Shown here one piece after another: positions 19,505-26,251 of a stretch of 27,513 nt of DNA (position 1 is its first letter; each line of letters opens with the position of its first letter). The stretch is taken from the NCBI RefSeq assembly GCF_003334385.1, contig NZ_QOWN01000057.1. The stretch is one strand, 5' to 3'. The notes beneath the pieces are model-generated. The model searched no databases, was not told where the DNA came from, and saw only the letters and a list, made by a program, of their open reading frames with translations. The position numbers and the translations under genes were made by a program. This stretch comes from Escherichia coli (GTDB taxonomy: Bacteria > Pseudomonadota > Gammaproteobacteria > Enterobacterales > Enterobacteriaceae).

Positions 19505-20536
19505 TTAACCTTTTTTCGCCTGGCGGGTCATAATGGCGCGATATACCTTGAAACGCCCGGTTTGCGCAATCACTTCATGGAAGCCAAATGTCTCATCCAG
19601 CACGTCCGGATAAGGCAGGAAGGCGTTCGCTACAATTCGCAGCTCGCCGCCACTATTAAGATGACGCACCGCGCCGCGAATCAGCGTTTGCGCCGCATCC
19701 AGGCTGGTTTGCATCCCATCGTGGAACGGCGGGTTGGAGATGATCATATCAAAACGACCTTTCACCTCGGAAAAGACGTTGCTGGCAAAGACTTCACCTT
19801 CAACACCGTTGGCCGCAAGTGTTGCGCGGCTGGCTTCTACCGCTGGCGCAGAGACATCGCACAAGGTGAGACGAATTTTCGGCGAATGGCGCGCAAAGGC
19901 AACTGAAAGCACACCCGCGCCACAGCCGACATCCAGCACTTTACCTTTCGTGTGCGGGGTTAACGTCGAGAGCAGCAACTGGCTACCGACATCCAGACCG
20001 TCGCGGCTAAACACGCCAGGCAGCGTTTTGACCGTCAGGCCATCGACGCTGTATTCGCCCCAGAATTTATCGGCATCAAATACCGGCTGTTTTTCCAGAC
20101 GACCAAAATAGAGGCCACAGCGACGAGCGCTGTCGACTTTATTCAACGGCGCATAATCTGCCAGCATCTGCTCGGCGCTGCGCACGCCGCTGCGGTTCTC
20201 GCCAACGACAAAAATATCTGTCCCCACTGGCAGCAGAGAAAGTAAATTCATCAACTGGAACTGGGCTTCCGGTTTGTTCTTCGGCCAGTAGTAAATCAGC
20301 GTATCGCAATCTGCGACGTCATCCACCGTGGCGACCAGACTGAAACGGGCGTTATCCCCCATCTGGCGGCTTAATACCTGCCAGTGGTGGAATTGCTGGG
20401 TATGAGCACGGCTGGCCGCGGTATCTAAACGCGCGGGCAGGTCATCCTGTAAGTCTCCGGCAAACAGAATACGGCTTTGTTCGAAATCATCACTGTGACG
20501 CAGCAAGACTTCACTTGCCGGGGTAAATGCAGACAT
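19505..20536 (-). CDS. rsmC: 16S rRNA m2G1207 methyltransferase
   Basis: 343 aa with a SAM-binding motif [11 protein letters not shown] and an NPPFH catalytic motif. Confidence 0.9.
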
Positions 20537-21481: not shown

Positions 21482-22159
21482 ATGAAGTGGGACTGGATTT
21501 TCTTTGATGCCGATGAAACGCTGTTTACCTTTGACTCATTCACCGGCCTGCAGCGGATGTTTCTTGATTACAGCGTCACCTTTACCGCTGAAGATTTTCA
21601 GGACTATCAGGCCGTTAACAAGCCACTGTGGGTGGATTATCAAAACGGCGCGATCACTTCATTACAGCTTCAGCACGGGCGTTTTGAGAGCTGGGCCGAA
21701 CGGCTGAAAGTTGAAGCAGGCTTGCTTAACGATGCCTTTATTAATGCGATGGCGGAAATCTGCACGCCGCTGCCGGGCGCGGTTTCTCTGCTTAACGCCA
21801 TTCGTGGCAACGCCAAAATCGGCATCATCACCAACGGCTTTAGCGCCTTGCAGCAAGTGCGTCTGGAACGCACGGGCCTGCGTGATTACTTCGATTTGCT
21901 GGTGATTTCCGAAGAAGTTGGCGTTGCCAAACCGAATAAGAAAATTTTCGATTATGCGCTGGAACAGGCGGGCAATCCTGACCGTTCACGCGTGCTGATG
22001 GTTGGCGACACTGCCGAGTCCGATATTCTCGGTGGCATCAACGCCGGGCTTGCGACCTGCTGGCTGAATGCGCACCATCGCGAGCAACCAGAAGGCATCG
22101 CGCCCACCAGGACCGTTTCTTCGTTGCACGAACTGGAGCAGCTCCTGTGTAAACACTGA
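21482..22159 (+). CDS. yjjG: HAD-family pyrimidine 5'-nucleotidase YjjG
   Basis: 225 aa with the HAD motif I FFDADETL near the N-terminus. Confidence 0.9.
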
Positions 22160-22249
22160 TTGCCTCCCCCCCGTTGATGGGTAAAATAGCCGCAATTTTT
22201 CGTTTTCAACAAGCGCGGCGCGATGCCGCTTACTCAAGAAGAAAGAATT

Positions 22250-22324
22250 ATGACGTTGTCTCCTTATTTGCAAGAGGTGGCGAAGCGCCGCACTTTTGCC
22301 ATTATTTCTCACCCCAATAATTAA
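22250..22324 (+). pseudogene. prfC: Truncated 5' end of prfC (peptide chain release factor RF3): 22 native codons, then 2 foreign codons and a stop
   Basis: The ATG at 22250 encodes [22 protein letters not shown], identical to the RF3 N-terminus as I recall it. The G1 P-loop motif (HPDAGKTT in K-12) is broken after HP; the frame continues NN-stop and the sequence becomes AT-rich and unrelated. Confidence 0.8.
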
Positions 22325-22478
22325 GCCCAAATTAAAGCTCTTTTACTCTTTCAAAGTCCTTTCAGTTAATTGAGTGCTAATCATATAACTCATTTAATAA
22401 CATGATGTTATGTGGTTTCTTTAATTGAAAATTCTTTCATGTAACTTTAAATCGATCAGGTTGCTTTCATCAAAAATC

Positions 22479-22535
22479 TGTACATGTGCTTGTACATAAT
22501 GTACAAAACAGCAGAGGTGTTTTTTTATTTGTACA
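22479..22535. promoter_or_regulatory. Four TGTACA hexamers (22479, 22491, 22500, 22530) upstream of the integrase start; candidate operator or arm-type sites
   Basis: Read directly: ctgTGTACATgtgctTGTACATaaTGTACAAaac...tttatTTGTACAAggtgagtaATG. Confidence 0.3.
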
Positions 22536-22544
22536 AGGTGAGTA

Positions 22545-23756
22545 ATGGCGCTGTCTGATGCGTGGTTGCGTTCAGTCGTTGGAAAGGAACGTGATAAGGT
22601 TTTGGTAAAATCCGATCGTGATGGTCTGTCTGTCAGAGTATCACCGAAAGGTCGCGTAGTGTTCCAATACCGTTATCAATGGGCAGGGAAAGGTGAGCGT
22701 CTTGATATCGGAACTTACCCGGCAACTGGATTAAAAGAGGCCAGAGAAGAAGTTATCCGTCTCCGTGGTGAACTCGAGTCAAACCGTAATCCACGATTGG
22801 TCAAGCAGGCTGAAAAACGAAAAGCTACTGAAGCCATGACGGTAGAGTCTGTGATCCGTGCCTGGTATGAAGCATATTGTGTAAAAAATAAAAAGGGTTC
22901 TGAACAGATACTCCGCTCGTTTGAGCTGCACCTGTTCTCTAAAATCGGGAATATCCCTCACGATGCAGCTACATTGCATGATTGGTTAGAAGTCCTGGAG
23001 CCTCTTAGCACTAAGACTCCAGCAATAGCAGACCGATTGCTAATTAACGCAAAGCAGGCCCATGTCTGGGCGTATAAGAGAAAGCTTATTGAAACTCGCC
23101 CGCTGTCGGACATCACGGGTAAAGATATGGATATCCGTAAAGGTCAGAAGAAACGGTTTCTGACACACGATGAAATTAAAATTCTTTATGCTGCGATCGA
23201 TGGTTCTCGAATGGTTCCCAAATACCGGGCCTTCATTAAACTATTGCTGCATTTCGGCTGTCGTAGTTCAGAGCTGATTACTGCCAGGGTGGACGATTTT
23301 GATTTCATTAATAAGGTATGGACTGTACCACCAGAACGACATAAGACAGGGGACATAACAGGCGAACCGCTAAAGCGGCCCATTATTGAACCTGTTGAAG
23401 AGCTTATAAAATATGTTATCTCTATGAACAACGGTTCCGATATGCTTTTTACTAAGGAAGGAAGCAGGGAGCCGGTTGGTCGGACATCATTGCAGTCGCT
23501 GCCTTACAATTTAATGCAGTACGCATGGCGGCGTTTAGGATATCAATTCCCTCATTGGTCTCTTCATGACTTGAGACGTACAGCTCGAACAAATTTTTCT
23601 GATCTTACTGCGCCTCATATCGCAGAAATTATGCTTGGTCATAAGCTGCCAGGGGTATGGCAAGTTTATGATAAGAGCGATTATCTAGAAGAACAGCGTA
23701 AAGCCTACCAGACATGGTGGGAGAGAGTTGAATCGATAGTTACTTGTACTAGCTAA
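22545..23756 (+). CDS. Tyrosine site-specific integrase (P4-like; N-terminal DUF4102-type arm-binding domain plus catalytic domain)
   Basis: 403 aa. N-terminus MALSDAWLRSVVGKERDKVLVKSDRDGLSVRVSPKGRVVFQYRY is typical of the P4-integrase family. The C-terminus carries catalytic-box residues HDLRRTARTN (H-x-x-R), LGHK and the nucleophile Tyr in VYDKSDY. Confidence 0.9.
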   Translation: MALSDAWLRSVVGKERDKVLVKSDRDGLSVRVSPKGRVVFQYRYQWAGKGERLDIGTYPATGLKEAREEVIRLRGELESNRNPRLVKQAEKRKATEAMTVESVIRAWYEAYCVKNKKGSEQILRSFELHLFSKIGNIPHDAATLHDWLEVLEPLSTKTPAIADRLLINAKQAHVWAYKRKLIETRPLSDITGKDMDIRKGQKKRFLTHDEIKILYAAIDGSRMVPKYRAFIKLLLHFGCRSSELITARVDDFDFINKVWTVPPERHKTGDITGEPLKRPIIEPVEELIKYVISMNNGSDMLFTKEGSREPVGRTSLQSLPYNLMQYAWRRLGYQFPHWSLHDLRRTARTNFSDLTAPHIAEIMLGHKLPGVWQVYDKSDYLEEQRKAYQTWWERVESIVTCTS

Positions 23757-24052
23757 GATTCCCGTTGACAGTTTGCGTAGCCAGAGCGCAATCAAATCTG
23801 ACGGTCTGCTTTGAGCTGAAGAGCGGATCTTATGTTCTTTTCACTGTTTCCTCAAAAGCATCTATTACTCACTTCGTTGCTCTTTGTGTCGTTTTGAAGA
23901 AAATGCCACTTAACAAAGAATTGGATTAACTAACTTTTTTAAAGGATGTACTTGCAACTTCAATCACAGAAAAAATTTCCAGTTACCCTAAAATGGTCAG
24001 CTTAAATCATTTTCAAAAAATTATTCAAATGTGTAGGGGAAGTGGGATTTTT

Positions 24053-25840
24053 ATGAGACTTGAAAAACTAATTTTAAAGAATTTTCGTGGCTATCACGGT
24101 GAACATAGTATTGACATTAATTCACTAACTGCAATCGTTGGACGTAATGATGTTGGAAAAACAACTATCCTAGATGCGCTTGGAGTGTTTTTTGACCATA
24201 AATTATGTAAATATGATGCTGCCGATAAATGTGTTGATAGTTTAGATAATGATGACGTAGCAATTGGGTGTGTTTTTTCAGGGGTTGAAATACCTATTGT
24301 CTTAGATGCTTCATCTATAACTAATCTTGAAAAAGAATACTTATTAAATAATGATAAAAAGTTAGAGATATATAAGGTTTTTACTAAAGGTAAGGGAAAT
24401 GGTAGCATTCAAGCGAAATGTATGGCTCCATCAGTAAAAAGTGCAAAGTCTTTACTCGCTAAAAAAAATGAGGAGCTTAAAAGAATTGCTGAATCTATTG
24501 GTGTGGATGATGCAGACAAAAGAAGTAATGTTAGTTTAAGGCAAGAGATTTACAAGAAAATTGGAGATTTGAAACTTCATGAAAGCTTTGTTAAATTAAA
24601 TGCTGAGGAGGGTAAAGTAATTTGTGATAAAATATACGATAAACTCCCTCATTTTGCACTGTTTCGCGCAGATAGACCTAGCACTGATGAAGAATCAGAA
24701 GTACAAGACCCTATGAAGTCAGCTGTACAAACAGCATTGCAAAAAATTGATGTTCAACTTGAGTCCATTAAAGATAATGTAAAAAAACACGCAATTTCCG
24801 TAGCGAATAACACAATTAATCATTTGCATGATATATCTCCTAATCTTGCATCTGGATTAGTTCCAAAGTTTAAGGTGGAACCTAAGTGGGAAAATATTTT
24901 TAAACTGACACTAGAAGATGATAGAGGTATCGCTATAAATAAACGTGGCAGTGGCGTTAGACGTCTTGTCCTGATTAGCTTTTTTAAAGCAGAAGCAGAA
25001 AGATTGCAAAGTGAATTCCCAGATAAAGGTGTTATCTATGCTATCGAAGAACCTGAAACATCTCAACACCCCTCTAATCAGAGACTCCTTATTGAGGCTT
25101 TTCAAGAGTTAGCAAGTTCAGATAAATGCCAAGTATTAATCACCACTCACGTACCAGCACTCGTAGAAAAGATACCGACTGAGTCTTTACGCCATATAAC
25201 CAGAACTCTTGACAATGGTTTAGAAGTAAAAAATGGTGATGATGATGTTCTTAAGAATATAGCAAATGATCTAGGTGTATACCCCGACAGTAGGGCATCT
25301 GTTCTTGTGTGCGTTGAAGGTCCTAATGATATAAACTTTTTAAAAAATATCGGTAAGGTTTATCTTGATTATGGTGTTAAAAATGTTCCAGACATGATGA
25401 ATGATCCGCGTATAGTTTTTATTCCAATGGGGGGGCATACTCTCAAAGATTGGGTTAATAACAATTATTTGAAAGTTCTAAATAAACCAGAGGTTCATAT
25501 TTATGACAGAGATGTTGCAGTTCCTCCCCAGTATGAAAATGAATGTAATTCAGTAAATGCAAGGAAGGATGGCTCTATAGCATTTATGACCCAAAAAAGA
25601 GAAATGGAGAATTATTTACACCCTGATGCCATTCAGGCTGTTTTCGGTATTACTCTAACCATAGACGATATGACAGATGTTCCTTCCGTTGTATCTAAAT
25701 TAACAGCATTCAATGAAAGCAAAGCGAAGAAGAAACTTAATAAGTTCGCTACAGGTAAAATGAGCTATCAAATGCTCACTGCAAGCGATACAGAAAGAGA
25801 GACGTTATCATGGTTTAATGCTATATATGACAGATTATAA
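24053..25840 (+). CDS. OLD-family ATP-dependent endonuclease-like protein (N-terminal ABC/AAA ATPase plus C-terminal Toprim); candidate single-gene anti-phage / abortive-infection factor
   Basis: Walker A VGRNDVGKTT near the N-terminus; Walker B / D-loop VIYAIEEPETSQHPS; H-loop LITTHVP; C-terminal Toprim-like motifs VLVCVEGPND (conserved Glu) and VHIYDRD (DxD). Start placed at MRLEKLILKNFRGY, with GGGGAAG about 10 nt upstream, rather than the track start 23993. About 595 aa, close to the size I recall for P2 Old. The gene is markedly AT-rich. No UvrD-like helicase partner is adjacent. Confidence 0.8.
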   Translation: MRLEKLILKNFRGYHGEHSIDINSLTAIVGRNDVGKTTILDALGVFFDHKLCKYDAADKCVDSLDNDDVAIGCVFSGVEIPIVLDASSITNLEKEYLLNNDKKLEIYKVFTKGKGNGSIQAKCMAPSVKSAKSLLAKKNEELKRIAESIGVDDADKRSNVSLRQEIYKKIGDLKLHESFVKLNAEEGKVICDKIYDKLPHFALFRADRPSTDEESEVQDPMKSAVQTALQKIDVQLESIKDNVKKHAISVANNTINHLHDISPNLASGLVPKFKVEPKWENIFKLTLEDDRGIAINKRGSGVRRLVLISFFKAEAERLQSEFPDKGVIYAIEEPETSQHPSNQRLLIEAFQELASSDKCQVLITTHVPALVEKIPTESLRHITRTLDNGLEVKNGDDDVLKNIANDLGVYPDSRASVLVCVEGPNDINFLKNIGKVYLDYGVKNVPDMMNDPRIVFIPMGGHTLKDWVNNNYLKVLNKPEVHIYDRDVAVPPQYENECNSVNARKDGSIAFMTQKREMENYLHPDAIQAVFGITLTIDDMTDVPSVVSKLTAFNESKAKKKLNKFATGKMSYQMLTASDTERETLSWFNAIYDRL

Positions 25841-25980: not shown

Positions 25981-26057
25981 GGCACAGAGCGGATTTCAGA
26001 TTAGGTGTGACTCTGTGCCATAGATGGGTATTAGCTCACATTTGATCTAATACCCAT
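25981..26057. terminator. Two stem-loops in the convergent intergenic region between the OLD-like gene and the alpA-like gene
   Basis: ggcacagag-N21-ctctgtgcc (25981-26019) and atgggtattag-N12-ctaatacccat (26024-26057); the second abuts the stop codon of the alpA-like gene. Confidence 0.35.
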
Positions 26058-26251
26058 TACTCAATAACTCCCGCAAACCTGTATATCTTGCGCGATGCCC
26101 ATTTATTTGGGCAGGATTTTATATCAGGATTTGGAAAGTCAGGCCTGTATTTCTGGCCTGTTTTCCTGTTTACGCTGTTCCAGCGAAGAACAGTCGATAC
26201 TGAAACGCCACAGAAGTCGGCGACTTGTTTAGTTGTCATTAAGTTGTTCAT
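26057..26251 (-). CDS. Small HTH DNA-binding protein, AlpA/excisionase-like
   Basis: 64 aa; TTKQVADFCGVSVSTVLRW resembles the AlpA/Xis-type helix-turn-helix. Its start overlaps the stop of the upstream DUF551 gene (TAATG). Confidence 0.55.
   Translation of the reverse strand: MNNLMTTKQVADFCGVSVSTVLRWNSVNRKTGQKYRPDFPNPDIKSCPNKWASRKIYRFAGVIE

Follow-up and report, generated by a model that had tools for sequence, protein, structure and literature searches.

What are the four copies of the hexamer TGTACA that crowd the last stretch of DNA before the integrase gene (int) in this 27,513-nucleotide segment of Escherichia coli DNA (hereafter the window)? A first-pass annotation had noted four copies upstream of int, and we find them at 22479 to 22484, 22491 to 22496, 22500 to 22505, and 22530 to 22535, reading TGTACAT (22479), TGTACAT (22491), TGTACAA (22500), and TGTACAA (22530) with the next base included. 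The int start codon is at 22545, directly behind AAGGTGAG. The cluster does lie within 70 bp of this ATG, the first hexamer starting 66 nt before it, but the last hexamer ends 9 nt upstream of the start codon and not 10 as first given. Two readings had been offered for these repeats, arm-type sites of the integrase and an operator for a regulator. The first of these has stood, given a word present on both arms of the attachment site, an arm-binding domain in the integrase, and an association with Int that holds across elements; the second has not. From sequence comparison, we consider it highly probable that the hexamers are int-proximal arm-type binding sites of the heterobivalent tyrosine integrase of a cdtI-like prophage inserted in prfC.

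The cluster stands out against the rest of the window, which holds eight copies of TGTACA in all 27.5 kb. Dinucleotide-preserving shuffles of the window (n = 2,000) never placed more than two copies in a 57-bp span, and none of 20,000 shuffles of the AT-rich 224-bp spacer contained four (the maximum, three, was reached four times), indicating that the cluster is real and not a product of chance. The hexamers had been described as iterated palindromes. TGTACA is indeed repeated, but once the flanks are taken into account the repeated word is an oriented 8-mer, TTGTACAT. Site R1 (CTGTACAT; 22478 to 22485, plus strand) and site R2 (TTGTACAT; 22490 to 22497, plus strand), which can be extended to TGTACATAAT, form a direct pair with a 12-bp spacing. 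They are followed by an inverted copy, R3 (ATGTACAA; 22499 to 22506, minus strand), and by a proximal copy just before the ribosome-binding site, R4 (TTGTACAA; 22529 to 22536, minus strand). The R4 word is self-complementary, and its counterpart in relatives is inverted, with the consensus TATGTACACA.

The window is part of an E. coli chromosome and is 100% identical to strain JNEC-KY204 (genome NZ_AP045180.1). [quoted passage not shown] The native prfC start is cut off after the codons I-I-S-H-P; its severed 5' end, 24 codons (22250 to 22321) followed by a stop, can be read from the sequence at 22250 to 22324 (plus strand), on the host side of attL, and is annotated as a partial CDS in the identical genome NZ_AP045180.1. 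A full prfC with a phage-supplied 5' end is found at the far end of the prophage in the matching lysogen. The element SXT, as Hochhut and Waldor reportedly described in 1999, uses the same I-I-S-H-P spot and supplies a replacement prfC 5' end together with a promoter. Comparison of attL, attR, and the attP of cdtI delimits a 14-bp common core, ATTATTTCTCACCC (22301 to 22314, unstranded), which lies at the I-I-S-H-P codons, is common to all three attachment sites, and by this comparison must contain the point of strand exchange. The core thus mapped places the hexamers in the phage arm of attL (22315 to 22544, plus strand), 165 to 220 bp from the core, and in this int-proximal arm the sequence is the same as on the int side of the phage cdtI attP. 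The spacer from core to int ATG measures 230 bp, and both the prfC 5' end and int are on the plus strand. Counting genomes in which at least 80% of a query spanning 22200 to 24000 is present, the int-att module sits at prfC in 699 of 5,426 complete E. coli genomes (about 13%).

The prophage gene order runs from int through an inserted ATPase gene, xis, the early-left operon, and the genes for a LexA-family repressor and Cro to the replication, Q, lysis, head, and tail genes. The ATPase gene (23993 to 25840, plus strand) encodes 615 amino acids; compared with PADLOC, it scores best against AriA of the PARIS defence system (E = 8e-57) and less well against OLD and GajA. In relatives, a small gene homologous to xis is directly convergent on int, so that the ATPase gene looks like an anti-phage defence gene inserted at the prophage edge.

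The int gene (22545 to 23756, plus strand) encodes a 403-amino-acid tyrosine integrase with arm-binding, central, and catalytic domains recognized by Pfam. Residues 3 to 90 match Arm-DNA-bind_3 (PF13356; E = 5e-16), with PF22022 and PF00589 following, and the first 97 residues match the solved arm-binding domains 3JTZ (HPI integrase; E = 1.4e-7) and 3JU0 (HAI7). Both Pfam and structure matches therefore assign the protein the arm-binding domain of a heterobivalent tyrosine integrase. It is 99% identical to the Int of phage cdtI and 97.8% identical to the integrases of Stx1a and Stx2c phages. The cdtI phage Int has been classed in the IntSXT subgroup, in a prfC-targeting cluster with SXT, and its DUF4102 domain has been described as arm-binding (PMC8138268). 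The protein encoded here shares both features of that cluster, a DUF4102 N-terminal domain and insertion in the prfC 5' end.

The word recurs on the two arms of attP. The circular genome of phage cdtI (47 kb) has 13 copies of TGTACA, of which 8 are inside the 420-bp attP, four to the left of the core and four to the right, and all six copies of TTGTACAT/ATGTACAA in this genome also fall within attP. On each cdtI arm, two copies of like orientation form a pair 12 bp apart (L3-L4 and R1-R2), accompanied by isolated and inverted copies. Phages 2H10 and Ayreon have the same two-arm pattern, and the homology to Ayreon sets in about 25 bp beyond the outermost site, limiting attP to roughly 450 bp. 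In the lysogen that matches the window at 100%, the other four (left-arm) sites are found at attR, upstream of the rebuilt prfC. Similarly, the Acinetobacter phage vB_AbaM_ABMM1, whose Int is 44% identical, carries a 12-bp pair on its int side and another located 234 bp upstream of that one, and its int side also includes a proximal copy. A scan of viral contigs for a GTACA pair 50 to 80 bp before a prfC core returned 18 stretches, most of them attR junctions from outside E. coli in which the substitute prfC starts vary. Intact attP sites account for two of the 18, in the metagenomic viral contigs L175 (Int 46% identical) and L182 (50% identical), and in both the int-side sites are present even though the pattern did not demand them. 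The left arms of four further contigs (L180, L187, L188, and L189) carry extra copies beyond those that the pattern required. Outside E. coli, the two-arm evidence comes from three elements (ABMM1, L175, and L182), two of which were found by a pattern that itself demanded the left-arm pair.

The far end of the prophage was examined in phage cdtI and in a sequence covering this end of the window's prophage (L093). The replacement prfC 5' end and its upstream region are phage-supplied (2570 to 2770 in cdtI; 19880 to 20070, minus strand, in L093). The four far-arm TGTACA sites lie 20 to 135 bp before the replacement prfC ATG, a position from which integrase occupying attR could influence how the rebuilt release-factor-3 gene is expressed. 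A DinI-like gene, oriented divergently from the far attP arm, is preceded by two LexA-box-like sequences (CTGT-N8-ACAG; 2495 to 2550 in cdtI, 20080 to 20130 in L093).

Conservation in the int-side arm is concentrated in the repeats. Among 20 distinct E. coli haplotypes of the spacer, 48 of 200 non-hexamer positions are variable, compared to none of the 24 hexamer positions (Fisher one-sided p = 0.002, a value that is indicative only, as the haplotypes are related). These haplotypes come from a scan of viral contigs for close relatives, and their integrases, all 98 to 100% identical, add no divergence. Comparison across seven genera, including Salmonella, Trabulsiella, Pantoea, Symbiopectobacterium, Xenorhabdus, and Serratia, extends the range of Int identity to 61 to 85%. 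The 230-bp arm has diverged among these genera, and no block has stayed invariant except for the core, R1, R2 (as TGTACATAAT), and R4. R3 appears to be a lineage-specific extra site, present in E. coli, Salmonella, Trabulsiella, and Pantoea and degenerate or absent in Symbiopectobacterium, Xenorhabdus, and Serratia.

The first-pass annotation had proposed comparing the hexamers with the int upstream regions of related elements, and this comparison bears out their conservation. A scan of one genome per species yielded 80 relatives (Int 43 to 99% identical), from which we analyzed 74 distinct non-E. coli upstream regions from Gamma-, Beta-, and Alphaproteobacteria (Int 43 to 84% identical). In 64 of the 74, GTACA-N7-GTACA (copies 12 bp apart) occurs less than 100 bp from the int start, and any other GTACA spacing between 8 and 16 bp is seen in three of the 74 at most. 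The pair is about 70 bp before int, with the consensus T-TGTACAT-N4-G-TGTACATAA. Most relatives add an inverted copy (AAnTATGTACACA) near position -19 (median, 19 bp before the ATG), and in 39 of 43 cases a distance of 36 to 39 bp separates this copy from the second site. TGTACA reaches a density of 20.4 per kb in the int upstream regions and 0.12 per kb elsewhere in these loci. Some of the relatives' elements are at prfC and some are elsewhere; a prfC 5' fragment is found upstream of int in 29 of the 49 loci examined, in all 29 in the same orientation as int.

A few lineages have exchanged the word and kept the layout. Both the 12-bp direct spacing and the inverted copy are retained with the word GGTGTAAA in L141/L142 and with GTGTCCATAT in L160, and the 12-bp direct spacing is retained with the variant word GTACAAAT in L118/L149. 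Even in the viral contig L179 (717 to 1100), with an Int only 32% identical, the int side reads GGCACCCC-N4-GGTACCCC (GGYACCCC) in the 12-bp register; the TGTACA pair left of the prfC core in this contig probably reflects two different elements in tandem at prfC. Int residues Ser29 and Gln41 (codons at 22629 to 22631 and 22665 to 22667) are conserved in relatives using GTACATAA and are replaced in the changed-word lineages L141/L142, L160, and L118/L149, by N/M, W/F, V/S, and C/S. For instance, L141 combines Asn and Met with GGTGTAAA, and L160 combines Trp and Phe with GTGTCCATAT. Residues 29 and 41 are thus possible specificity determinants. Word swaps that track substitutions in the N-terminal domain are as expected of arm sites read by that domain, and the sites travel and covary with the integrase and not with other modules, in what are few independent lineages.

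These patterns also bear on other possible roles for the hexamers. The "AlpA-like" protein of the first-pass annotation is the 64-residue prophage excisionase, or recombination directionality factor (xis, 26057 to 26251, minus strand; phrog_1553, E = 1.9e-35), and as a possible binder it keeps the place of a minor rival. The hexamers would then be sites at which Xis, through its AlpA-like helix-turn-helix, bends the arm for excision and represses int, as with TorI of KplE1 and Vis of P4. Indeed, the KplE1 directionality factor binds attL over the intS promoter (PMC2951348). Closely spaced direct repeats are often bound by excisionases, and xis is conserved beside int in Enterobacterales relatives; since its gene travels with int in this order, Xis could be the binder in these bacteria. 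The sites of an excisionase are normally grouped on a single arm, as in lambda, whereas TGTACA is found on both attP arms and in both orientations. Further, the GTACA triad persists in Pseudomonas, Betaproteobacteria, most Acinetobacter elements, and phage ABMM1, in which no Xis homologue was detected in the 3 kb after int with a small HMM of limited sensitivity, and word changes follow substitutions in the Int N-terminal domain, which argues against Xis as the binder. A better excisionase candidate is the separate repeat CTTTCA, restricted to the int-side arm, with four direct copies between 22348 and 22469 (starting at 22348, 22359, 22434, and 22464, plus strand). Salmonella, Trabulsiella, Pantoea, and Symbiopectobacterium retain those near -110 and -174, although the count alone is not significant, as about 10% of shuffles reach four copies of some hexamer. 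CTTTCA copies are candidate sites for excisionase or an accessory factor, and we regard Xis binding at the TGTACA hexamers themselves as quite unlikely.

An operator for a regulator of int, whether a phage protein (CI, Cro, or CII) or one from the host, for example a response regulator that recognizes direct repeats, would agree with the position of the sites directly upstream of int and with the perfect 17-bp palindrome, TTGTACAT-A-ATGTACAA, that R2 and R3 form together. However, this palindrome is not conserved, as Xenorhabdus and Serratia have other spacings and orientations, and the motif has been retained by phages and islands from three classes of Proteobacteria whose one gene in common is int. 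A host factor would have to be common to all three classes and yet track Int substitutions, and we find an operator function extremely hard to credit. The immunity regions of cdtI and the window's prophage are unrelated while the att-int module is the same, which indicates that the word belongs to the integrase module rather than to a repressor. Two specific operators were considered and rejected: the cI-cro spacers of cdtI and of the window's prophage (L001) contain no TGTACA, and CTGTACATGTGCTTGT does not fit the LexA box CTGT-N8-ACAG, LexA-like boxes being located at the other end of the prophage. It is also very improbable that the conserved words are mainly promoter or 5' untranslated region elements of int, for example a -10 element in TGTACATAAT, instead of repeats recognized by a protein. 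The geometry relative to the ATG is very constant, and the only -10-like hexamer in the arm, CATAAT (22495 to 22500), is within R2. Outside Enterobacterales, though, the extension is mostly CATAAA, missing the key final T, our scan found no -35 partner, and the far arm, which needs no int promoter, has four further copies of the word. Nor does the RNA of this region (22470 to 22560) fold better than shuffled sequences (z = -0.8), a result that likewise gives no evidence of an attenuator.

If the hexamers are integrase arm-type sites, as we favor, the parallel with lambda suggests how the two ends of Int would divide the work. The C-terminal domains would bind and cut the 14-bp core (22301 to 22314), and the N-terminal arm-binding domains would hold the TTGTACAT words 165 to 220 bp away and, in attP, the four further copies on the other arm. 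Arms and core would thereby be bridged into a recombination complex that sets the balance of integration and excision. Classical intasomes usually need a bending protein. A search for the IHF consensus allowing at most one mismatch found no site inside attP and an overall count no higher than chance.

The placement of the sites also points to control of int itself. With the int start codon only 9 nt beyond the last site and int transcription leading away from the core, bound integrase probably lowers int transcription, and by analogy to other elements we infer that arm-bound integrase probably exerts negative autoregulation. Scans of 22150 to 22650 and of the cdtI attP found neither a terminator nor, on the int strand from the core to the ATG, a sigma-70 promoter; with no sigma-70-like promoter in the arm, the autoregulation step has no mapped target. 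The sole sigma-70-like match between 22150 and 22650 is a prfC promoter-like site, TTGCCT-16-TAAAAT (22160 to 22187, plus strand; consensus scan only), which reads towards attL and int. As this site points at int with no terminator-like sequence in between, read-through in the lysogen is possible. The target of repression could be a weak promoter that overlaps the sites, or else transcription running through from the prfC promoter. When the phage is circular, int might possibly be transcribed from the prfC-substitute promoter of the far arm, again by analogy.

The proposed arrangement can be compared to well-studied integrases. As with the lambda Int arm-type sites (P1, P2, and P'1 to P'3), a repeated word distinct from the core occurs on both arms, including tandem copies, within an attP of roughly 250 to 450 bp, and is read, here by prediction, by the N-terminal arm-binding domain of a tyrosine integrase. 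It differs from lambda in the word itself (TTGTACAT), in an arm domain of the Arm-DNA-bind_3/DUF4102 type, in the transcription of int outward from the arm rather than toward attP from pL/pI, and in having no detected IHF consensus. Another parallel is KplE1 (CPS-53), where the intS promoter is inside attL, arm-type sites for IntS overlap it, and IntS represses it; the same has been predicted for loci with the target gene ahead of int, in the same orientation, and a spacer of about 210 to 230 bp, and int of the satellite phage P4 is likewise repressed by its own integrase (PMC2951348). The geometry here is of the KplE1/P4 type: the target gene is upstream of int in the same orientation, int adjoins attL and points away from the core, xis is not cotranscribed with int, and the predicted arm-type sites occupy the last ~70 bp before the start codon. 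In contrast to KplE1 and P4, the target is the protein-coding gene prfC and not a tRNA gene, and repression is proposed here by analogy.

SXT/R391 elements also target the 5' end of prfC, and their integrases belong to the same cluster in a published tree (PMC8138268, PMC4344509). In SXT, int is expressed from the SetCD-dependent promoter Ps003 and is not directly against attL, whereas here int adjoins attL and the element is a lambdoid phage, not a conjugative element. The literature searched contained no description of SXT arm-type sites. In ICEKp1, int is subject to state-dependent promoter switching (PMC13023037). Purely by analogy, the host prfC promoter could read into int when the prophage is integrated, and an element promoter at the far end could do so when it is circular; no terminator or attenuator was found here.

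A broader proposal joins these observations, and we put it forward as tentative and rather doubtful. The GTACA triad, consisting of two direct copies 12 bp apart and an inverted copy 36 to 39 bp further on, would be a clade-wide arm code of DUF4102 integrases spanning Alpha-, Beta-, and Gammaproteobacteria, with Int residues 29 and 41 setting its specificity. In members at prfC it would form part of a two-way switch, in which Int at attL would control the transcription that reaches int from the host prfC promoter, and Int at attR would occupy the phage-supplied prfC promoter region, tying release-factor-3 expression to the state of the prophage. The literature searched did not link TGTACA to integrase arm sites and did not include the word, the 12-bp register, or their wide conservation in this integrase clade; it did not cover older work on cdtI and SXT, key papers among it, so an earlier description is possible. 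The kind of element is itself ordinary and of a textbook type.

The int-att module is carried by phages that include Stx1a-, Stx2c-, and Cdt-I-converting phages. The arm sites define a functional attP of about 450 bp, which helps to predict the mobility of such toxin phages, and they provide an easily recognized signature for related elements. Conserved across the family, with a few swaps of the word, they are a natural data set on how DUF4102 arm-binding domains read DNA.
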